Shown here: one piece after another, positions 36,289 to 64,000 of the stretch
Numbering within the stretch: position 1 is the first letter of the stretch
Layout: every line of letters begins with the position of its first letter
From: a virus
Taxonomy: Duplodnaviria > Caudoviricetes
IMG/VR virus record: IMGVR_UViG_3300024252_000005
DNA length: 64,000 nt
Reading direction: 5' to 3' (one strand)
The notes under the pieces: generated by a model
The model's database searches: none
Told to the model about the DNA's origin: nothing
The model's input: the letters and a program-made list of their open reading frames with translations, nothing else
Made by a program: the position numbers and the translations under genes

Positions 36289-36444
36289 TACCATCAACAG
36301 AGATCAAACCGGTACAGCCATAAATACTCCGAGCGGGATTCGAACCCGCAAGCCATAAGGCGCCTGATTTTAAGTCAGGTTTGTCTACCAATTCCAACAT
36401 CAGAGTTAATAATTTACTGCGTCTGCCTATTCCGTCATGGTGGC
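36289..36444 (-). pseudogene. Degenerate tRNA-Leu-type gene split into a 5' half (36411-36444) and a 3' part (36289-36324) around an intact tRNA-Leu
   Basis: 5' GCCACCA TG ACG GAATAGGCAGA CGC A GTAAA TT; 3' TTTATGGCTGT ACCGG TTTGATC TCTGT TGATGGT A; the acceptor halves pair at 6 of 7 positions. Confidence 0.7.
36325..36406 (-). tRNA. tRNA-Leu(TAA), no encoded CCA
   Basis: ACTCTGA/TCGGAGT acceptor, CCTGA CT TAA AA TCAGG anticodon arm, long variable arm, GGTTCGAATCC T-arm. Confidence 0.95.
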
Positions 36445-36814: not shown

Positions 36815-37351
36815 ATGAGAAATAAACCTAATCAAATATCTTGGGATGATGGTAATAGACTATACAGCTTAGAGACTAAAGATATAATACATGTACTTGT
36901 TAGTAATGATGTTCAAGTAAAAAATATCTCTCCAGCTGGTTCATTAAGAAGAAAAAGACATAAAGTTGGAGACTTAGACATTGTAATAGAGGTAGATAAT
37001 CCTAAATTGGCAGGTAAAATACTAGAAGACAAAATGAATTATAATTTTATTGCTAAAAGCTCTTTTTACAAAGGTAAAATTCTTAATACAGGCGTTGACT
37101 TATTTGTTGCAGGCCATCACGATTATTACGCTATGCTATTTTTCTTAACTGGTTGTGAAGATTGGAACTTAAGAATTATGAAATATTTAAAAAACAATAC
37201 TGATATTAGATACACACCATTTCAGTTTATTAATAGTAAAAACAAAAAAGTGTATAAGTTTAACTCAGAAAAAGAAATATTTAAACTAATTAATCATAAT
37301 TATGTATTACCAGTAAATAGAAAACCTAACTACGTAAAATTTGGAGATTAA
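36815..37351 (+). CDS. DNA polymerase X family catalytic core (truncated)
   Basis: AGSLRR...GDLDIVI, VDLF, LTG motifs. Confidence 0.85.
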   Translation: MRNKPNQISWDDGNRLYSLETKDIIHVLVSNDVQVKNISPAGSLRRKRHKVGDLDIVIEVDNPKLAGKILEDKMNYNFIAKSSFYKGKILNTGVDLFVAGHHDYYAMLFFLTGCEDWNLRIMKYLKNNTDIRYTPFQFINSKNKKVYKFNSEKEIFKLINHNYVLPVNRKPNYVKFGD

Positions 37352-39999: not shown

Positions 40000-40023
40000 T
40001 TAACACACTAGACAGGACTTGAA

Positions 40024-40063
40024 CACGCCTATCTGGACTCGAACCAGAACTCTTGGGCTTAAG
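40024..40063 (-). pseudogene. 3' half of a split tRNA (Arg-type identity)
   Basis: CTT AA GCCCA AGAGT TCTGG TTCGAGT CCAGA TAGGCGT G: perfect T-stem; acceptor strand pairs with 41085-41091. Confidence 0.8.
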
Positions 40064-40150
40064 CACCTCCTGGAGGATTCGAACCTCGCACTCTCCAATT
40101 CCCCTATATTAATGAGACCGGCTTAGAAGGCCAGTGGGGATGCAGAAGGC
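40064..40150 (-). ncRNA. Atypical D-armless tRNA-like RNA with TCT (Arg) anticodon
   Basis: 8-bp acceptor GCCTTCTG/CAGGAGGT; CTGGC CT TCT AA GCCGG; 4-bp T-stem GAGG TTCGAAT CCTC; an 8-nt linker replaces the D-arm. Confidence 0.75.
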
Positions 40151-40247
40151 ATATAACAATATTATTATTTTTTTGTTTATTGTTAAATTATTTTTGCATT
40201 AACATTGATCTAAGCATATTTATTATATGTTCAAGTTGAGGATAAAT

Positions 40248-41057
40248 ATGTATTGCAATAAATGTGAAAAAGAGATACCCAAAAAAGAAGCTGGTAATCA
40301 TAAAAGATGGTGTGGAAATAAAAAAACTATTAAAGATTCTTACTGTAAGATATGTAATTCTCCAATAAAAAACACAAGAACAAACTCAGTTAGAAAATAC
40401 TGTGCTAGAGAATGTTTTAACAAAGGAGTATATACTAAAGAGTTTAAACAAAAAATATCTAATAGCAGAAAAAAATATCTTAAGGAAAACCCTAACAGTC
40501 ATCCTTGGTGTAAAGAAAACAAATTTAAGTCTGCGCTAAAGAAGTTTCTTAAGGAAAATAATATAGACTTCATTGAAGAGCACCAGCCTCTGAAAGATAG
40601 ATTTTTCTCTATTGATATTGCCATACCAGAAGTTATGTTTGGAATAGAAGTAAATGGTGAGCAACATTATAATAGGGATAAAACTCTTAAGAAATATTAT
40701 CAAGAAAGACATAATTTAATTAAAGCACAAGGTTGGGTGATATATGAGATTCACTACTCTAAAGTTTATGACGATATTTTTTTATCGAGTTTAATTGAAA
40801 GAATAAGAAAAAATAATTTTAATAACTTTACAATAGACTTTGAGTTACGTAAAAACAAAGTTAAAAGAAGAAAAAATGTAAAGGAAGTCTCTCTAAAGCA
40901 TAAAGAAGAAAAAGCTAAAAAGTTGCTTGAAACAAGATTAGAACATATTAGTAAGGCTGAAAAGAATTGGGGTTGGATTTCCAAAGCTTCTCGAGATCTA
41001 GATATAAGTCATACTCATGTAAGAAGGCTCGTAAACAAGTATCTTTCTGATGCGTAA
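40248..41057 (+). CDS. Free-standing homing-type endonuclease (Zn fingers, Vsr/DUF559-like PD-(D/E)xK domain, C-terminal HTH)
   Basis: CNKC, CKIC...YCAREC; FSIDIAI...GIEVNGEQHY...GWVIYEI; GAGGA RBS before ATG 40248. Confidence 0.82.
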   Translation: MYCNKCEKEIPKKEAGNHKRWCGNKKTIKDSYCKICNSPIKNTRTNSVRKYCARECFNKGVYTKEFKQKISNSRKKYLKENPNSHPWCKENKFKSALKKFLKENNIDFIEEHQPLKDRFFSIDIAIPEVMFGIEVNGEQHYNRDKTLKKYYQERHNLIKAQGWVIYEIHYSKVYDDIFLSSLIERIRKNNFNNFTIDFELRKNKVKRRKNVKEVSLKHKEEKAKKLLETRLEHISKAEKNWGWISKASRDLDISHTHVRRLVNKYLSDA

Positions 41058-41091
41058 AGGCCCCTGCTTTATCCTATTAAGCTATAAGCGC
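41058..41091 (-). pseudogene. 5' half of a split tRNA (Arg-type identity)
   Basis: GCGCTTA TA GCTT AATAGGATA AAGC A GGGGC CT; ends at U33, exactly at the endonuclease stop codon. Confidence 0.8.
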
Positions 41092-41216: not shown

Positions 41217-41256
41217 ATATAAGACCTTTTTGCTCTAACTACTGGGCTATAGGCCC
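41217..41256 (-). pseudogene. Degenerate 5' half of a tRNA-Ile-type gene
   Basis: GGGCCTA TA GCCC AGTAGTTA GAGC ... CT TAT, running directly into the intact CAT tRNA. Confidence 0.65.
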
Positions 41257-57811: not shown

Positions 57812-58180
57812 TCAATAATAAAACCTAATCAACTCAATAAACTTCTCCAATAACATATAATCACTCTCTAACTCATACTGATCAGCTAACTCAGGATCAC
57901 ACACAATCTCTACTCCCTCCCTTAACAATATCTCAAATAACTCCTCACACGCCTTCTCATACTCCACTCCCATATCATAACTTATATATATCACCTCATC
58001 ATATACTCCATCACTTACCCCTACCTTGTAACCCTCATGCTGAATCAATACTAAACTACCATCTACTCGCTCAATAGTTCCACAACCACTCGGCGGAGAT
58101 CTATAATCCACAACAAATAATACCCTCCCCTCCAAACATAATCTACTCATAACCAAAACCTTTCTATTCTTATTCAACAA
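57812..58180 (-). CDS. Hypothetical acidic protein
   Basis: ORF in the skewed block. Confidence 0.5.
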   Translation of the reverse strand: MLNKNRKVLVMSRLCLEGRVLFVVDYRSPPSGCGTIERVDGSLVLIQHEGYKVGVSDGVYDEVIYISYDMGVEYEKACEELFEILLREGVEIVCDPELADQYELESDYMLLEKFIELIRFYY

Positions 58181-58421
58181 GTGGCCAAAAAGACGTTCTG
58201 TGGGAACTTCTCAAAAAACATATGTTATACCTTATCTAGTTTATTCTAATTAAACGTAGATTAACGTCGTAACTGTTAACGCAACGCTAGGCTGATGACT
58301 CGGGACAAAGCTGAGCGCTGACTCGGAATATGAATCTCTATTCATTAGACTTTTTTTGACACCGGGTTGCGCAGAAGCTAGATCAATAGCTGTGCTACGT
58401 GCGCAGAATCGGCATAGAGCT

Positions 58422-58700
58422 TTAGATGGGATTATTGGTATTGTATTCGCGGAGAGCTTCGGCGACTTCTAACATTCCCGTCAGTGCTTTTCTGGTTGTG
58501 ATCTCGCGCTGATCAAACTTTCGTTTAGTCGACTGCACACCAGATGTTTGACCTTGTATTACCATGGATCTCATTACTTCGAGAGCAAGCTCTGAATCCT
58601 CTTCCCTGACATGAAGGTGTATTCTTCGGTCGCCGGGTGCGATATCGATGTAGGCTATGGCATACTTTGATTCAGTGTTAATGTTTCGAATTGAGGGCAT
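58422..58700 (-). CDS. Hypothetical protein
   Basis: AAGGA RBS; first gene of the higher-GC block. Confidence 0.7.
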   Translation of the reverse strand: MPSIRNINTESKYAIAYIDIAPGDRRIHLHVREEDSELALEVMRSMVIQGQTSGVQSTKRKFDQREITTRKALTGMLEVAEALREYNTNNPI

Positions 58701-58728
58701 ATTTTATTTCCTTATAATGCTATAGTTT

Positions 58729-58953
58729 TCAGAGATTATCCATATACTCCGTGACATCCCTTGCAACATCTTCGTATGAATCTGTAACATGGATGCATTT
58801 GCCGTTGTTAAAGTGTATCCAGCAAGTCTCGCCCAGCTTTTCAATAGTATTCTCTTTGCACTGATTGACATGAGAGATAGAGTCGAAGGGGACAAGAACG
58901 TTGATGTTAGAGTTGACTGTATTGTATGTTGTGTATCGTGAAGCGTTTGTCAT
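58729..58953 (-). CDS. Hypothetical protein
   Basis: AAGGAT RBS. Confidence 0.7.
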   Translation of the reverse strand: MTNASRYTTYNTVNSNINVLVPFDSISHVNQCKENTIEKLGETCWIHFNNGKCIHVTDSYEDVARDVTEYMDNL

Positions 58954-58978
58954 GATGATGATCCTTTATTTATTTAAG

Positions 58979-59021
58979 AAAAGCTGCGACTAGATCTATG
59001 CGCAAGTAGATTAAAAGTTGT
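58979..59021. repeat. Hairpin-containing intergenic repeat, copy 1
   Basis: AAAAGCTGCGACTAGATCTATGCGCAAGTAGATTAAAAGTTGT. Confidence 0.8.
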
Positions 59022-59036
59022 GTAGCGAACGAAGAG

Positions 59037-59243
59037 TTAGTCTTCGCTATTTTCGTCTAGTTGTTGTTGTAAGAGTAAGACATGGTTCATAATAGAAATG
59101 GCGATCTCTATGTCACCATCGATGAAAGCACTGTTAACTTTACCTTGAAGTGCTTTCATCTTTTTACGGATCTCTTGTTTATTAAAATATTGCTTTTTAA
59201 GTTTTTTGTTATCGCGAGGTTTGTGATTATCGGATTGAGACAT
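59037..59243 (-). CDS. Hypothetical protein (start moved downstream of the promoter)
   Basis: MSQSDNHKPR...; the ORF-track start lies inside the promoter. Confidence 0.65.
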   Translation of the reverse strand: MSQSDNHKPRDNKKLKKQYFNKQEIRKKMKALQGKVNSAFIDGDIEIAISIMNHVLLLQQQLDENSED

Positions 59244-59277
59244 ATCATCCACCTTGTGTGTGTGTTGTTGTTGATAT

Positions 59278-59307
59278 ATTATATCAATGATATTATGTAT
59301 TTGCACG
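59278..59307 (-). promoter_or_regulatory. Repeated phage promoter
   Basis: CGTGCAA-N17-TATAAT. Confidence 0.8.
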
Positions 59308-59365
59308 TCGGGTTGATGACGCAGAGGGTTGTAGCCTCGAGGCTGCTTTTTCCCTGGGTGAAGAC

Positions 59366-59584
59366 TTAGTTTTGTTTAGGGTACATGAGTAGTTGAGCTT
59401 CGTGAGAAGACATCCAGTGGATATTCATTGCGTCGCCATCGTCGAAGACTTCTTGTCCGCCGCGAATATGAATTGGTTCTTTGAAGTCGATGGTTTGAAC
59501 AGGAGGCATGTTGTGTTTAACTGCGAAGAAAGCGCCAATTGAAAGAGTAAAGGAGATGAGGAGTGCGATTAAGTTACCTTGCAT
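59366..59584 (-). CDS. Small N-terminally anchored membrane protein
   Basis: LIALLISFTLSIGAFFAV. Confidence 0.65.
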   Translation of the reverse strand: MQGNLIALLISFTLSIGAFFAVKHNMPPVQTIDFKEPIHIRGGQEVFDDGDAMNIHWMSSHEAQLLMYPKQN

Positions 59585-59610
59585 ATGTAGATCTTTCTTT
59601 AGTGTAGTGA

Positions 59611-59925
59611 TTAAATAAATAGTGCAGAAGCGACTAGGTTTAGCCAGGGAGAAGTCTTAGCGTTGTTATTCTTTGCTGGTTCATGTGTAACCTTGCACAC
59701 TTCAGCCCTTTGAATATCCTTGTAATATCTTGCTGTTAGCTCATCCTTGCATTGTAGAGCTTCTTGGGCATCGTTAAAATAGAAGCATCGTGAAGGTTTC
59801 TTCATGTCTGGGTGAAGTAATACATGAACTGCGAAAGTGTACTGTTCAGATGAGCTAAGCCATGAGACTTTGTCACCGTGAGAGTTAATAGCGATATTGT
59901 AGTATGAAGCGTGTTCGTCAAACAT
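59611..59925 (-). CDS. Hypothetical protein
   Basis: ORF downstream of hairpin repeat copy 2. Confidence 0.65.
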   Translation of the reverse strand: MFDEHASYYNIAINSHGDKVSWLSSSEQYTFAVHVLLHPDMKKPSRCFYFNDAQEALQCKDELTARYYKDIQRAEVCKVTHEPAKNNNAKTSPWLNLVASALFI

Positions 59926-59950
59926 ATTGTTAGCCTTGTAATGTTATTGT

Positions 59951-59993
59951 AAAAGTTGCGACCAGATCTACGCAAAAGTAGATCAAAAGCTGT
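59951..59993. repeat. Hairpin-containing intergenic repeat, copy 2
   Basis: AAAAGTTGCGACCAGATCTACGCAAAAGTAGATCAAAAGCTGT. Confidence 0.8.
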
Positions 59994-60036
59994 TTCTTCT
60001 TATTTAGGATGACACGTTAGCGTTGATATACGCGAG

Positions 60037-60252
60037 TCACTCTGTATCTAGACTGTACCAATCATTGACCAACCAGCCATGCTCATCGCTCAGCGCGTCT
60101 GTAACTTGGAAAAGTGTAACTGTGCTCATGTCTTCGAAGTAATCAGATAGATCAACTTCGAGTGGCACTCCGTTAGCATTAGCAAATTGATCATGCTCTT
60201 CAGGTGTATGATTGGAAGGTAAGTCGAAGTCCCATTGGATTTGAATGATCAT
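60037..60252 (-). CDS. Paralog family B protein
   Basis: IQWDFDLP...VPLEVDLSDYFED...VTDALSDEHGWLVN. Confidence 0.8.
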   Translation of the reverse strand: MIIQIQWDFDLPSNHTPEEHDQFANANGVPLEVDLSDYFEDMSTVTLFQVTDALSDEHGWLVNDWYSLDTE

Positions 60253-60288
60253 GTTGATCCTTGATTGTTTGGGTAGTGGTGATGGTTT

Positions 60289-60319
60289 ATTATAATATGA
60301 TATTAAGTTGGATTACACG
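60289..60319 (-). promoter_or_regulatory. Repeated phage promoter cassette
   Basis: CGTGTAA-N18-TATAAT then AAACCATCACCAC. Confidence 0.85.
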
Positions 60320-60396
60320 TTAGAGCTGTCGACCAATATTTTTACCTAATCTATGCTTGAATAGTTAAAGTAGTGTTAGCTATATGTGTAACGATA

Positions 60397-60708
60397 TCAC
60401 ATGCTCCAATAAGACTCTGATGAAGGTGAGCAGTAAGAAGGTGTATTATACCTTTCCTTATACTCTTCACCTGACATCATGTTCTTTCGAATGACATAAG
60501 TTTCGTAGATATTTGTAACAAAGCGCTCAGCTTCAGGATACTGTGCTTTACATAATTCTTCAACTTCTTTCCTGCTCAATCCTTCATGATCATGAAATTC
60601 AACAAATCTTAATCCAGCCTTGTTCTTTCCCGAGCGAATAGACTTAGACCTAGATGTAATACGATTGTCTTTTTTGTATACTTCAACAGTAAATTGATTA
60701 GTTGTCAT
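60397..60708 (-). CDS. Paralog family D protein
   Basis: Ends TPSYCSPSSESYWSM. Confidence 0.8.
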   Translation of the reverse strand: MTTNQFTVEVYKKDNRITSRSKSIRSGKNKAGLRFVEFHDHEGLSRKEVEELCKAQYPEAERFVTNIYETYVIRKNMMSGEEYKERYNTPSYCSPSSESYWSM

Positions 60709-60756
60709 ATTAAAGCTTTCTTGGTTGATTGATTTTTTGATGTTGCCTTATGATAT

Positions 60757-60787
60757 ATTATACACAACGAATTAACTAGTTTACACG
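60757..60787 (-). promoter_or_regulatory. Repeated phage promoter
   Basis: CGTGTAA-N18-TATAAT. Confidence 0.82.
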
Positions 60788-60828
60788 CACAGAGTGCGAC
60801 GATGCCAGCCGTTGCCAGGCCAAGTCAG

Positions 60829-61239
60829 TTACTTCATGATGAGGGTGTGGCCAGGATTAGTGAATCGGCCGCGATACCCCTTGTAGTTAGCTGAGATACG
60901 ATCGATCATATCCATCCGAGCTTGAGCACAAGGTTCTTTGATAACTTTTTTAGAATTGAATCCCCACTGAGTTGGAATGCTCTTGCGACGATTGATAACG
61001 AACTGATCTTGGACCTTGTAGGTCTTAGACACACCTTCAGGTGGAGGAAAGGAGTTATAGATAGGATTGGTGTATTCTGCGTTGATCTCACGTCGTACGT
61101 AGCCATTAGCATATGAGATGTAAGATACTTTATGTTGTTGGCAGAAGAACTGTTGGTTGCCGCGACGTGCTTGGACTGGTGTTGTGGTCTCGATGAGGTT
61201 TGTGTTTTGAGGCTGAATGGTGTGGATATTGGTGTCCAT
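60829..61239 (-). CDS. Paralog family C protein
   Basis: LIETTTPVQARRGNQQF...SYANGYVRR. Confidence 0.75.
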   Translation of the reverse strand: MDTNIHTIQPQNTNLIETTTPVQARRGNQQFFCQQHKVSYISYANGYVRREINAEYTNPIYNSFPPPEGVSKTYKVQDQFVINRRKSIPTQWGFNSKKVIKEPCAQARMDMIDRISANYKGYRGRFTNPGHTLIMK

Positions 61240-61274
61240 GATGGTCCTTATTGGATGAGCGGTGTTGATGGTTT

Positions 61275-61305
61275 ATTATAATATACGTGTTATTTAAGTT
61301 GCACG
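61275..61305 (-). promoter_or_regulatory. Repeated phage promoter cassette
   Basis: CGTGCAA-N18-TATAAT then AAACCATCAACAC. Confidence 0.85.
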
Positions 61306-61318
61306 ACCTAGTTATAAC

Positions 61319-61585
61319 TTAGCGCTTGATGAGCATATTTTCGTTGTTGAAAAAGTGTGCGTATGTGACAGCAAAAGAATCTACAAACTCTCTCTTTCGA
61401 TTATAGATGCACACATTGTAATCGTTATGCAGTTTCATCGATCGTGTTGTCATGCTCTTGCCTGAGTCAATGTCAGTAACTAAAACCTTGTGACCAGTAG
61501 CGAACGGTGCTTTGGAGCTTAGCCATAGAACGTGAGCCTGTAGAGGTTTAGGTGTGTCAACAATAATAATGTTTTGTGAATCCAT
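61319..61585 (-). CDS. Hypothetical protein
   Basis: Promoter cassette upstream. Confidence 0.7.
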   Translation of the reverse strand: MDSQNIIIVDTPKPLQAHVLWLSSKAPFATGHKVLVTDIDSGKSMTTRSMKLHNDYNVCIYNRKREFVDSFAVTYAHFFNNENMLIKR

Positions 61586-61620
61586 GATGATCCTTATTGG
61601 ATGAGTGGTGGTGATGGTTT

Positions 61621-61651
61621 ATTATAATATGGAAGTTAACTTAGTTACACG
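61621..61651 (-). promoter_or_regulatory. Repeated phage promoter cassette
   Basis: CGTGTAA-N18-TATAAT then AAACCATCACCAC. Confidence 0.85.
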
Positions 61652-61673
61652 ACGTGGGTTGGCGAGAGGATTG

Positions 61674-61859
61674 TTATAGATAGATTCCTCTGCTGATTTG
61701 AGACTTAAGCGACTCCTTGCGTTGCGAGATGTCTTCAAGCTTACCGGTCAAACCGTTTTTGTGTAGCTCTTTAGTGTAAGAAGCTGTAGCTTGACGAAGT
61801 AACTCTTTGAGTTCGTTGCGAGTGTGGACGATGATCATTGATTGTTTGTTGGAGTTCAT
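61674..61859 (-). CDS. Hypothetical protein
   Basis: Promoter cassette upstream. Confidence 0.7.
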   Translation of the reverse strand: MNSNKQSMIIVHTRNELKELLRQATASYTKELHKNGLTGKLEDISQRKESLKSQISRGIYL

Positions 61860-61891
61860 GTTGAACCTTATTGTTTGGGTGGTGATGGTAT

Positions 61892-61922
61892 ATTATAATA
61901 TGATTATTAACTTAGTTGCACG
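61892..61922 (-). promoter_or_regulatory. Repeated phage promoter cassette
   Basis: CGTGCAA-N18-TATAAT then ATACCATCACCAC. Confidence 0.85.
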
Positions 61923-62223
61923 AAGGCTCGTGCCATGCGTAGTTATTGATGAGCCAGCCGAATTCGTCGCTGAGAGCATCAGTGATTTGCTCAGGTGAAA
62001 CACTTCGTGGGTCTTCAAAGTAATCAATGAGATCGACTTGTTGTGGGACACCGAATAACATTGAAACGTCTCGTTTATACCCAGCTAATCGCTCGGGATC
62101 TTCCAGGATGACCTCGATGTCTCCTTCAGATAGACCAAGCATCTCTTGAGTTTGTTCATCCTGTTCGATGTCAAACTCCCAGTCAATGTTAATGATTGTT
62201 GATTGTGTGTTTGGTGTTTCCAT
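61912..62223 (-). CDS. Paralog family B protein (start moved to METPNT)
   Basis: IDWEFDI...VPQQVDLIDYFED...ITDALSDEFGWLIN; the stop lies next to the following -35 box. Confidence 0.8.
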   Translation of the reverse strand: METPNTQSTIINIDWEFDIEQDEQTQEMLGLSEGDIEVILEDPERLAGYKRDVSMLFGVPQQVDLIDYFEDPRSVSPEQITDALSDEFGWLINNYAWHEPSCN

Positions 62224-62263
62224 TATATTAAATCCTTTGTTGGATAAGTAGTGGTGATGGTTT

Positions 62264-62294
62264 ATTATAATATATGTGTTATCTAAGTTACACG
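62264..62294 (-). promoter_or_regulatory. Repeated phage promoter cassette
   Basis: CGTGTAA-N18-TATAAT then AAACCATCACCAC. Confidence 0.85.
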
Positions 62295-62334
62295 AATAGG
62301 GTTGATGACGCCGCTGGTTGAACGGCCAAGACAA

Positions 62335-63141
62335 TTAAAAGATGTCGTCGTTGAGCTCATCGTCGGAGTTATCTTCAAGATCTGGATCTGCAAGACCTTC
62401 GGCTGCTAGAAATGCTTCCCATTCCTCAGGGTTGTCTGATGTTGGAGCTTCGTTTAGTTCTTCAAAAGGATCAGAATCTGTTTCTTTTACGTTAGGTCCA
62501 ATGACAACGTCAGCACGAGTTACAGCGCTTTTTTCCTTAGGCTCAGGCTTAACATCTTCAGGCTTAACATCTTCAGATTCAGCTTTTGCTGAGCTACTGG
62601 ACTCAAGGCCGAGAGCATGAGGGGTTTTATTCATTGGGCGAATTGCCTCATCAAGGACATCAATTGCGATATAGTGAAGTTGCTTAGTATGATCAAGTTT
62701 AGACCCACCAGTTCTGACTTCAAAAGCTGCACAGTTTTTCCCATTTGAGACTCGAGGTGCAGAAAATCTGATCCAAGCAGCACCTTTAGCTTCAGTGTTA
62801 GTTATGTAATCACTGCAATCAATGCCTTGAGATTGAAGTTCAGTTATAGTCAGACTGATCTCTTGAAGAGAAACGAAAACCCATTTAGCACCGGTGCCAG
62901 AAAACTTTGCTTTGACATCGCGTCGCCAAACTGCTTCGCCTTCTCCGGTCTTGCCTGATCTTGTTGTTAGATGCTTGATGTGACTGTCAATCAGTTCGTT
63001 AAGATGCTTCTTGAAGCCAGTTACGGAAGCTTTGTGTCCTTCAGCAATGAAGTTATCAAAAAGACCGCGGATCATTTCGTCGTCGTACTTATTCATTTCA
63101 GTTCCTTGACTGTTTGATTGTGGGAGAGAATTGTTATTCAT
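62335..63141 (-). CDS. Paralog family A protein with acidic tail
   Basis: FSGTGAKWV, GAAWIRF, FEVRTGGSK; ends DDELNDDIF. Confidence 0.8.
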   Translation of the reverse strand: MNNNSLPQSNSQGTEMNKYDDEMIRGLFDNFIAEGHKASVTGFKKHLNELIDSHIKHLTTRSGKTGEGEAVWRRDVKAKFSGTGAKWVFVSLQEISLTITELQSQGIDCSDYITNTEAKGAAWIRFSAPRVSNGKNCAAFEVRTGGSKLDHTKQLHYIAIDVLDEAIRPMNKTPHALGLESSSSAKAESEDVKPEDVKPEPKEKSAVTRADVVIGPNVKETDSDPFEELNEAPTSDNPEEWEAFLAAEGLADPDLEDNSDDELNDDIF

Positions 63142-63188
63142 ATTGAATCCTTATTTATTGTTGGTTTGAAGGTGTGCCTTATGGATGT

Positions 63189-63219
63189 ATTATATGTTAT
63201 GTTGATTGAAACTTACACG
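63189..63219 (-). promoter_or_regulatory. Repeated phage promoter
   Basis: CGTGTAA-N18-TATAAT then ACATCCATAAGGCAC. Confidence 0.82.
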
Positions 63220-63224
63220 CGGTA

Positions 63225-63431
63225 TTAAACCTCATCATCTTTTTTGTTTTCTAGAACTTCATCGATGACACCAGTTTCTTTTAGATGGAACTCAAGAGCT
63301 TGACGTCCTTCCTCTGTGATGCTGATGTATTCTTCTTCGTTGCACATTGCTTCCTGATAGTAATCGAAGATCTTGCAGCCAAGGACAAAGCCTAAAGCTA
63401 GAATGATGATGTAGATTAGAGTGGAAAACAT
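63225..63431 (-). CDS. Small N-terminally anchored membrane protein
   Basis: LIYIIILALGFVLGC. Confidence 0.65.
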   Translation of the reverse strand: MFSTLIYIIILALGFVLGCKIFDYYQEAMCNEEEYISITEEGRQALEFHLKETGVIDEVLENKKDDEV

Positions 63432-63476
63432 TTGAATCCTTGTTGAGTGTTTGTTTGTTGTTGTCCTTACTTATAT

Positions 63477-63507
63477 ATTATATAATAAGGAATAACTTCG
63501 TTACACG
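63477..63507 (-). promoter_or_regulatory. Repeated phage promoter
   Basis: CGTGTAA-N18-TATAAT. Confidence 0.82.
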
Positions 63508-63546
63508 AAGTGTCGACGACCTAGGTGGCTAACCCGTCAAGGAAGA

Positions 63547-63960
63547 TTACTGAACGAAGTTTCGTTTGATCTCTTCTTGATTAGCGATGTCAACGAGCTG
63601 TTTGCTGTGCTTAAGTGCAATCTTTCGTGCTCTGAACATAACAGACTTTCCTTGAGCATAGTGACCTAGAACGCGCTCGCATAATGGGTGTCGAAGATCC
63701 TTTTGTGGGTAGCGAACTTCGTTGCGATCGTTCATCCCAAGGAGCCACCGAGCCATGCGAGTCCCAGCTTTAGCGTCAGCAGCTGAGAAGCCGACAGAGT
63801 TCTCATACTTGGTCGTTGAAGTCTTAACTTCATCAGAAGTCTGCAAATTGAAGAGTCGCACGATAGCTCTCATCACCGCGATGTCGTTGTCGTTTAGAAG
63901 TTGATCGATCTCAGATCGTGTCCATATGCGTAGTGTCTTTGTTGATGTCTTGTCAGTCAT
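63547..63960 (-). CDS. Hypothetical phage protein
   Basis: ND.AV.RAIV.LF..QT.DE...N.VGF...DA pattern. Confidence 0.7.
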   Translation of the reverse strand: MTDKTSTKTLRIWTRSEIDQLLNDNDIAVMRAIVRLFNLQTSDEVKTSTTKYENSVGFSAADAKAGTRMARWLLGMNDRNEVRYPQKDLRHPLCERVLGHYAQGKSVMFRARKIALKHSKQLVDIANQEEIKRNFVQ

Positions 63961-64000
63961 AGTTAATCCTTGATGGAGTGTTGAAATGTTGTTTTGGACC

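Follow-up and report, generated by a model that had tools for sequence, protein, structure and literature searches.

We examined a 64,000-nt stretch of DNA (hereafter the window) from a virus of the Caudoviricetes (Duplodnaviria), IMG/VR record IMGVR_UViG_3300024252_000005. It is an AT-rich (~30% G+C), phage-like contig whose standard tRNA genes (Leu, Thr, Met/CAU) are located on the minus strand. On the same strand, at 40064-40150, lies an 87-nt tRNA-like element with the anticodon UCU, which is probably the gene of an arginine tRNA that does not fold as a cloverleaf. It forms one end of an insert of ~1 kb that also holds a divergent gene for a homing-endonuclease-like protein and that splits a resident, canonical tRNA-Arg(UCU) gene in two. 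The features of the locus are collected in Table 1, where RNA position n of the element corresponds to window coordinate 40151-n (minus strand). Related phage contigs are referred to by the labels L001, L002 and so on.

Table 1. Features at the interrupted tRNA-Arg(UCU) locus of the window, with strand and the observation that characterizes each
Feature	Window coordinates	Strand	Observation
Resident tRNA-Arg(UCU), 3' part, U36 to discriminator	40024..40061	-	No difference from the intact gene of L004 and L005 apart from the discriminator
Orphan T-loop/acceptor fragment behind the resident gene	40004..40023	-	Related fragments at the equivalent site in L001, L002, L004 and L005
Probable rewired (non-cloverleaf) tRNA-Arg(UCU) gene	40064..40150	-	87 nt; covariation and match to family model R2
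T-arm, positions 64-78	40073..40087	-	4-bp stem GAGG/CCUC, loop UUCGAAU; invariant in 8/8 copies
D-loop-like connector AUUGGAGAGUGC, positions 52-63	40088..40099	-	Equivalents of G18 G19 A20; GGAGAG invariant
Long-range helix, 3' strand GGGGA, positions 47-51	40100..40104	-	In the place of D-stem strand 10-13
13-nt stretch from anticodon stem to long-range 3' strand, positions 34-46	40105..40117	-	Possible pairing of CUC (35-37) with connector GAG
Anticodon arm, positions 17-33	40118..40134	-	Loop CUUCUAA invariant in all copies; pair 19-31 double-changed relative to the commonest pair
Long-range helix, 5' strand UCCCC, positions 11-15	40136..40140	-	In the place of D-stem strand 22-25; double changes 11-51, 14-48, 15-47; 100% of cells paired
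Acceptor stem, 5' strand, positions 1-8 (pairs with 40065-40072)	40143..40150	-	8/8 pairs in 8/8 copies; double changes 4-83, 6-81
Promoter-like TTAACA-16-TAATAT, ending ~8 nt before G1	40159..40186	-	9/12 consensus matches; conservation between copies begins here
Homing-endonuclease-like gene, 276 aa, divergent from the tRNA	40227..41057	+	N-terminal Cys/His cluster, Vsr/I-Bth0305I-like core, C-terminal helical domain
Resident canonical tRNA-Arg(UCU), 5' part, position 1 to U34	41057..41091	-	One base differs from the intact gene (L004 1570-1644, L005 5199-5272)

The acceptor stem of the element is formed by GCCUUCUG (positions 1-8) and CAGGAGGU (79-86), giving 8 bp that include G1.U86 and U5.G82. 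It adjoins a T-arm with a loop of the T-psi-C type. The anticodon arm has a stem CUGGC/GCCGG (17-21 with 29-33) and a 7-nt loop with U33 and a purine at 37, the anticodon UCU being located at 40127-40125. Between the acceptor and anticodon stems, at the site of the D-arm, there are only 8 nt, CAUCCCCA, and a four-arm cloverleaf is not formed. In this gap, the linker C9 A10 follows the acceptor stem and A16 separates the 5' strand of a long-range helix, UCCCC, from the anticodon stem. The complementary GGGGA is part of the 30-nt region that precedes the T-arm. The 8-bp acceptor, the 4-bp T-stem, the canonical T-loop and anticodon arm, as well as the missing D-arm, are all as the original prediction had read them. 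The discriminator is G87 and the bases downstream are CUU, so that CCA is not encoded in this subtype.

The element escapes standard detectors. ARAGORN in default mode reported nothing at 40064-40150 and no transfer-messenger RNA (tmRNA), and Rfam, including the tRNA family RF00005, gave no match there even at E<=10. Two candidates obtained with ARAGORN under other settings, a 'tRNA-Ser(CGA)' at low threshold and a 'D-loop mtRNA-Arg' in mitochondrial mode, were rejected because they rely on other pairings which do not covary. An alternative acceptor helix between AUGCCU, overlapping the 5' end of the tRNA, and AGGCGU in the 3' remnant of the resident gene was also rejected, since a G-to-U change in L016 breaks it without compensation. 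The fold energy of the single sequence is similar to that of shuffled sequences (z = -0.28), and the case for the element therefore rests on comparison with other copies.

Eight distinct copies, representing three sequence types, were obtained from marine phage contigs, namely from IMG/VR, from JGI metagenomes and from contigs encoding nuclease homologues of 53-84% identity. In their alignment, the proposed structure has 97.6% of its cells paired. Double changes are seen in six pairs: two in the acceptor stem, one in the anticodon stem and three of the five in the long-range helix (Table 1). Shuffled alignments contain 0.8 such pairs on average and none of 500 reaches six; sliding the register by one or two columns leaves no such pair. 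Pair 21-29 occurs as C-G, U.G or U-A among the copies, and RNAalifold independently recovers the identical nested fold. The helix that had been proposed as a substitute for the D-stem is real. Compared with the copy in L001, the tRNA of the window differs at 5 of 87 bases; the adjacent open reading frame (ORF) is 84% identical and only 29 of its 45 four-fold sites agree. So few changes next to a diverged coding sequence indicate that the RNA is constrained. A pattern search specific to this subtype gave no further IMG/VR contigs and no prokaryote genome, and blastn of a 3-kb stretch against cultured phages gave no match. Most matches of a pattern scan of metagenomes were archaeal intron-bearing tRNA-Arg genes, which are irrelevant here.

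A covariance model of the eight copies (R1), run over loci encoding nuclease homologues of 34-43% identity, recovered shorter relatives that are also missed by ARAGORN. The plan of these relatives begins with a 7-bp acceptor, U8 A9 and one base, a strand of 3-4 nt and one base, and the anticodon arm with the loop CUUCUAA. It continues with 3-16 bases, the complementary strand, UAAYUGGA and a few bases, and a 5-bp T-arm. Canonical phage tRNA-Arg(UCU) genes have the AAUUGGAU motif of the family as their D-loop, and the connector AUUGGAGAGUGC of the window element matches the family's AAYUGGA as well as the D-loop AAUUGGAUA of these canonical genes. In the simplest terms, the family can be described as having canonical segment 10-21, comprising the 5' strand of the D-stem and the D-loop, shifted from before segment 22-48 to after it.

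When searched for by pattern, this plan turned up in at least 120 IMG/VR contigs as well as 93 stretches of prokaryote genome contigs; parsing yielded 128 distinct sequences of the short type. The loop CUUCUAA and AAYUGGA were part of the search pattern; helix pairing, CCA, U8 A9 and the 5-bp T-stem were not selected for. U8 A9 and the 5-bp T-stem are present in all 128 members. In the long-range helix 94% of the cells are paired, and all three pairs are formed in 105 of the 128 members, as against 29 (maximum 41) with shuffled partners. Each of the three pairs is double-changed in 18-25 sequences of the 60-sequence alignment A4. CCA directly follows the discriminator in 67 of the 128, where ~2 would be expected by chance. 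The discriminator itself may be G, A, U or C across the family, and is G or A in the window subtype (A in L002 and L040).

A second covariance model (R2), built from 60 short-type members and from zero sequences of the window subtype, has its top match in the 64-kb window at 40065-40149 (33.8 bits, E 1.7e-6); it scores canonical tRNA-Arg(UCU) genes at 15 bits. This match, the shared helix and the AAYUGGA motif assign the element to the class with a relocated D-strand. As in the other members, the long-range helix is placed around the anticodon arm and the D-loop-like motif comes right after its 3' strand (GGGGA-AUUGGAG). U8 A9 and the 7/5 division between acceptor and T-stem are lacking, as G8 is paired, C9 A10 follow and the division is 8/4; the element is therefore a divergent subtype. 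With respect to the family frame, it has an extra acceptor pair (G1.U86), one T-stem pair fewer and a long-range helix of 5 bp. Thus, the new tRNA architecture put forward in the original prediction, in which the UCCCC/GGGGA helix stands in for the D-stem, gains support from covariation in the subtype and across a large family. The membership in this class, the connector resembling a D-loop (AAUUGGA) and the nuclease cassette described below had been overlooked.

Members of the short type also occur in GenBank records of cultured phages, unannotated in Agrobacterium phage Atu_ph04 (MF403007, ~112818-112893), Stenotrophomonas SOVA965 and Limnohabitans DC31, and labelled tRNA-Ser in Alishewanella phages; Alishewanella phage Slicko01 is among the cultured carriers. 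Their function is therefore directly testable in phages of these four hosts. In addition, a gene at L047 9-103 combines the relocated-strand plan with an anticodon loop CUACGAA (anticodon ACG, Arg CGN) and an extra hairpin, and the rewiring may thus extend beyond the UCU isoacceptor.

A decaying tRNA pseudogene or a functionless recombination scar could be suspected at a site that tRNA finders reject and whose neighbourhood is littered with tRNA fragments. Nevertheless, three helices show compensatory changes, conservation of the element far exceeds that of adjacent synonymous sites, and a family of at least 128 variants keeps identical pairing. We strongly disfavour this explanation and give it hardly any credence. 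Covariation among homologues of TCCCC/GGGGA had been named beforehand as the check on it, with missing homologues and missing compensation as the signature of decay; conserved copies with compensatory changes are what we found.

The same prediction included a closure of the long region by TCTC/GAGA and a potential pseudoknot. The complementarity is indeed present in the window (UCUC, 34-37, with GAGA, 56-59), but pair 34-59 is mismatched in five of the eight copies and no covariation of this helix was observed among them. A 3-bp register, CUC (35-37) with GAG (58-60), shows no mismatch and also no variation in the eight copies. In family members with a long insert, the bases that immediately follow the anticodon stem form pairs with others just downstream of the D-loop-like GGA, the sequences differing from member to member (GGACGU/AUGUCC, GUCGUU/AGUGAC, AGUC/GACU, AGGC/GCCU, AGACGU/AUGUCU and CGCU/AGCG). 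For this second helix the partner-shuffle control is modestly exceeded in these members (5.25 versus 4.37, maximum 5.17). Since their helices occupy the position of CUC/GAG in the window, a pseudoknotted core is, by analogy, plausible in the window subtype, and only that.

The insert interrupts the resident gene at its anticodon. Starting at the 5' break and following the tRNA strand, one first meets the 276-aa ORF in antisense orientation, with its stop codon directly at the break, then an AT-rich spacer of 76 nt and lastly the tRNA-like gene. The intron option of ARAGORN joins 41091-41058 and 40063-40024 into a good cloverleaf with an insert of 994 nt, of which the element is the last 87 nt, and calls a tRNA-Lys(CUU). 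We rejected this call as an artefact of the junction bases CU (40062-40063): C35 of the resident gene is lost, and the unbroken allele in the related contigs L004 and L005 (Table 1) is tRNA-Arg(UCU), not Lys(CUU).

This cloverleaf, together with an insert that ends in G and follows U, would suit an intron of a split tRNA gene, with the element as a part of it, removed by self-splicing or by RNase P/Z cuts and ligation. However, no Rfam family, group I and group II introns included, matches the tRNA strand of the insert even at E<=10, and almost the full length of the insert runs antisense to an ORF. In L002, L012 and L016 decay has affected the 5' part of the resident gene, and in L001, L025 and L027 this part comes from another tRNA body and hence cannot pair with the 3' part. 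A group I intron would bring a ribozyme core and exons that re-form a tRNA, and what is found in the relatives are exon halves that are mismatched or decayed. With no Rfam match and no tmRNA reported by ARAGORN, both a group I intron and a tmRNA were rejected.

Other copies give a similar picture. L016 and L002 carry the spacer and the tRNA without the ORF, L025 and L027 have the cassette in other tRNA shells, and in L040 it lies outside any recognisable tRNA shell. Cassette-free target alleles exist, as L004 and L005 are intact, and intact and cassette alleles are both present in one marine DNA run (X10). Decayed or mismatched 5' parts, ORF-less copies, the context in L040, coexisting alleles and the lack of an intron family argue for a mobile cassette rather than an intron, and we hold the latter to be extremely improbable. 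The insert bears the marks of a mobile nuclease cassette of ~1 kb with a cargo tRNA gene. Of the two parts of the resident gene, the 5' one decays and the 3' remnant remains conserved.

Further tRNA fragments are found around these genes. Orphan fragments consisting of a T-arm and the 3' strand of an acceptor trail tRNA-Arg in every relative (L001 2780-2810, L002 3740-3770, L004 1645-1695 and L005 5273-5315), and their T-stem shows one compensatory change between versions (GUAGG/CCUAC versus GUAAG/CUUAC). At 36289-36444 (minus strand) of the window, an intact tRNA-Leu(UAA) (36406-36325) is nested between a Leu-type 5' half (GCCACCAUGACGG...) and a 3' half with variable arm, T-arm and acceptor. 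The flanking acceptor strands still pair at 6 of 7 positions, and there is no nuclease gene inside. At 41217-41256 (minus strand), the 5' half of a tRNA (GGGCCUAUAGCCCAGUAGUUAGAGC..., with CUUAUAU at its end) abuts position 1 of the intact CAU tRNA (41216-41144), and may reflect an older replacement of a gene of the Ile(UAU) type.

The 276-aa ORF of the cassette has weak Pfam matches to PD-(D/E)XK-type nucleases, including PF18741, and 103 homologues, several of which are named Vsr endonuclease by their sources. In a predicted model with a pLDDT (predicted local distance difference test) of 82, the core superposes on 3r3p (I-Bth0305I) with a target-normalised TM-score (template modelling score) of 0.71 and probability 1.0, for a Foldseek E value of only 5e-3, and also matches Vsr (1vsr). 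Searching the nuclease profile against PDB sequences returned only a spurious chitodextrinase match, and NCBIfam returned nothing. The protein is thus predicted, from its model, to have a known homing-endonuclease fold. I-Bth0305I is intron-encoded; in contrast, the cassette described here carries a substitute tRNA in place of an intron. In at least 22 of 38 IMG/VR loci the nuclease homologues adjoin a rewired or canonical tRNA-Arg(UCU), and canonical tRNA-Arg(UCU) holds the equivalent slot beside related nucleases in at least 10 other loci.

Nuclease genes apparently move and recombine among the tRNA genes of this phage group. In L002 (4098-4737), a second copy of tRNA-Lys is interrupted in its D-loop by a related gene with a NUMOD-like N-terminal part, so that 16 nt remain as a 5' stump, and a chimeric version of this NUMOD-like nuclease is found in the tRNA-Arg cassette of L012. 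Near other nuclease homologues, ARAGORN predicts tRNAs with the anticodon CUA, printed as Pyl (L048 2803-2878, L065 1563-1638 and L069 2261-2334), which may be amber suppressor tRNAs.

Among the functions that had been proposed for the element, decoding of AGA as arginine fits best. AGA represents 70% of the Arg codons in the long ORFs of the window. No canonical tRNA-Arg was detected in the window by ARAGORN or Rfam, nor by the Rfam tRNA model in a 211-kb, 84%-complete relative. The element combines an invariant anticodon loop, equivalents of G18 G19 A20 and a 12-bp acceptor branch, and CCA is encoded in half of the family. Equivalents are also kept of A20, C35 and U36, which we take to be identity elements for arginyl-tRNA synthetase (ArgRS), as for the E. 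coli enzyme. We consider it likely that the element is the gene for a non-cloverleaf tRNA-Arg(UCU) reading AGA, carried as the replacement cargo of a Vsr/I-Bth0305I-like homing-endonuclease cassette.

Several points weigh against this interpretation. While the helices of the element rest on covariation, processing of the RNA, its charging by ArgRS and its use by the ribosome are steps that we infer. The subtype deviates from its family: it has C9 A10 for the otherwise invariant U8 A9, 8/4 for 7/5 and an insert of 13 nt, and CCA is not encoded. The promoter match at 40159..40186 is not above chance in a consensus scan. D-armless tRNAs otherwise work only with specialised mitochondrial factors (PMC7609411). 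The sole RNA evidence comes from the assembled contigs of one metatranscriptome, from which ends, strand and level cannot be read: a single 158-nt contig extends over the tRNA together with the 3' remnant and 20 upstream nt, and there is none for the nuclease gene. Expression had been named as a test of the pseudogene explanation, and this contig is a weak hint of it, but it could represent DNA carry-over.

Alternatively, the element could be a structured tRNA-like RNA without a decoding role, serving as a decoy or nuclease-resistant stand-in against a host defence directed at tRNA-Arg or at tRNAs generally, or as a processing or stability signal of the cassette transcript. A decoy would likewise need a conserved structure and anticodon loop, and phage tRNA genes are known to counter tRNA-cleaving defences (PMC13096335). 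The window subtype, without U8 and with its unusual 8/4 split, could suit such a role, as could the conserved 3' remnant of the resident gene alongside. It would leave unaccounted for, however, that half of the family encodes CCA, that the element holds the slot of canonical tRNA-Arg(UCU) beside related nucleases, that the equivalents of the ArgRS identity positions A20, C35 and U36 are kept, and that AGA is the main Arg codon. We regard a role outside decoding as unlikely.

The 8/4 split of the 12-bp branch, the extra sequence at the variable position and the location in phage tRNA clusters are shared with allo-tRNAs and with the (8/4) tRNA-Ser and tRNA-His of bacteria and alpha-proteobacterial phages, which have been described with D-arms (Mukai et al. 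2017, PMC5389517). Since 8/4 tRNA-Ser genes exist in phages (PMC5389517) and the window copy has G73, one might expect a serine-accepting allo-tRNA that reads AGA as Ser. But allo-tRNAs keep a D-arm with a long stem and a tetraloop, a true variable-arm hairpin and Ser identity (PMC5389517). The element has neither a tRNA-Sec-like D-arm nor a plain variable-arm hairpin, and its anticodon loop is of the Arg type. The discriminator varies, being A in L002 and L040, and the wider family is 7/5 with every discriminator base. The region at the variable position is explained by the relocated D-strand and the D-loop-like motif, and recoding of 70% of the Arg codons would be lethal to phage proteins. 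Because the discriminator varies and the variable-position region is otherwise explained, insertion of serine, which the original prediction had entertained, appears very unlikely.

In the arrangement that we favour, with segment 10-21 behind the anticodon arm, the 'D-stem' becomes the long-range helix (11-15/47-51) enclosing this arm, on which it could stack, and the AAUUGGA stretch could act as the D-loop at the elbow. The acceptor and T helices still total 12 bp, split 8/4. The nuclease gene and the rewired tRNA gene would be transcribed divergently from the short AT-rich spacer. The predicted nuclease would cut its putative target, the cassette-free tRNA-Arg genes of co-infecting relatives, and repair would copy the cassette into the cut gene. 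The cargo tRNA would escape cutting, because its DNA differs from the target, and would restore AGA decoding. The odd architecture of the substitute tRNA may itself result from this conflict with the nuclease.

A broader proposal, which we find about as easy to doubt as to believe, is that phages carry a class of non-cloverleaf elongator tRNAs that use the ordinary bacterial translation machinery and in which the D-stem is rebuilt as a long-range helix. The window subtype would be 8/4 and probably closed by a pseudoknot. The rewiring may be selected for invisibility to tRNA-Arg-targeting homing endonucleases or to host tRNA nucleases while the L-shape is kept.

Canonical tRNA-Arg(UCU) (RF00005, for example L004 1570-1644) shares with the element the loop CUUCUAA, the T-loop UUCGAAU, the 12-bp acceptor/T branch and the D-loop-type AAUUGGA, with GG and the following A. 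It also shares the place in phage tRNA clusters, beside the same nuclease family. In contrast, the element has no D-hairpin, its D-stem 5' strand and D-loop come after the anticodon arm, giving a three-way instead of a four-way junction, it is 8/4 with C9 A10 instead of 7/5 with U8 A9, and it is missed by the Rfam tRNA model and ARAGORN. According to a review of non-canonical tRNAs, those without a D-arm are confined to mitochondria (PMC7609411). Like these, the element has a short connector at the site of the D-arm and extra pairs that lengthen the anticodon helix. They are reduced organellar RNAs that need specialised factors, whereas the element is larger than a normal tRNA, has a D-loop-like motif and a canonical T-loop, and is found in phages of ordinary bacteria. 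The cassette resembles free-standing homing endonucleases of phage tRNA clusters such as T4 SegB (PMC2330249) as a selfish nuclease gene in a phage tRNA region, with cassette-free alleles coexisting, and the Vsr-like homing endonuclease I-Bth0305I (3r3p) in the fold of the catalytic core. SegB is, however, a GIY-YIG enzyme encoded between tRNA genes (PMC2330249), and the cassette here lies inside one. A full-text search of the literature gave no description of tRNAs with a relocated D-strand or of nuclease cassettes carrying replacement tRNAs.

The cloverleaf has been treated as universal for tRNAs outside organelles. If our interpretation is correct, the L-shape can be reached by a different path of the chain, which would offer genetic-code engineers a new scaffold. 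It would also explain why tRNA-Arg genes seem to be missing from many phage genomes, since tRNA finders skip rewired genes or call them tRNA-Ser. Moreover, a selfish nuclease could occupy an essential RNA gene by supplying a substitute gene, and not an intron.

Elsewhere in the window, the ORF at 9848-11119 matches phrog_1211 (2-aminooxy adenylosuccinate synthetase, PurZ-like; E 5e-73), and the phage DNA may, judging from this match, carry a modified adenine. Beside the tRNA genes, a 178-aa ORF (36815-37351) with weak matches to DNA polymerase beta palm and thumb domains (E ~1e-3) could encode a small nucleotidyltransferase. Finally, at its right end (58000-64000) the window is richer in G+C, which climbs from ~0.30 to 0.40-0.42.

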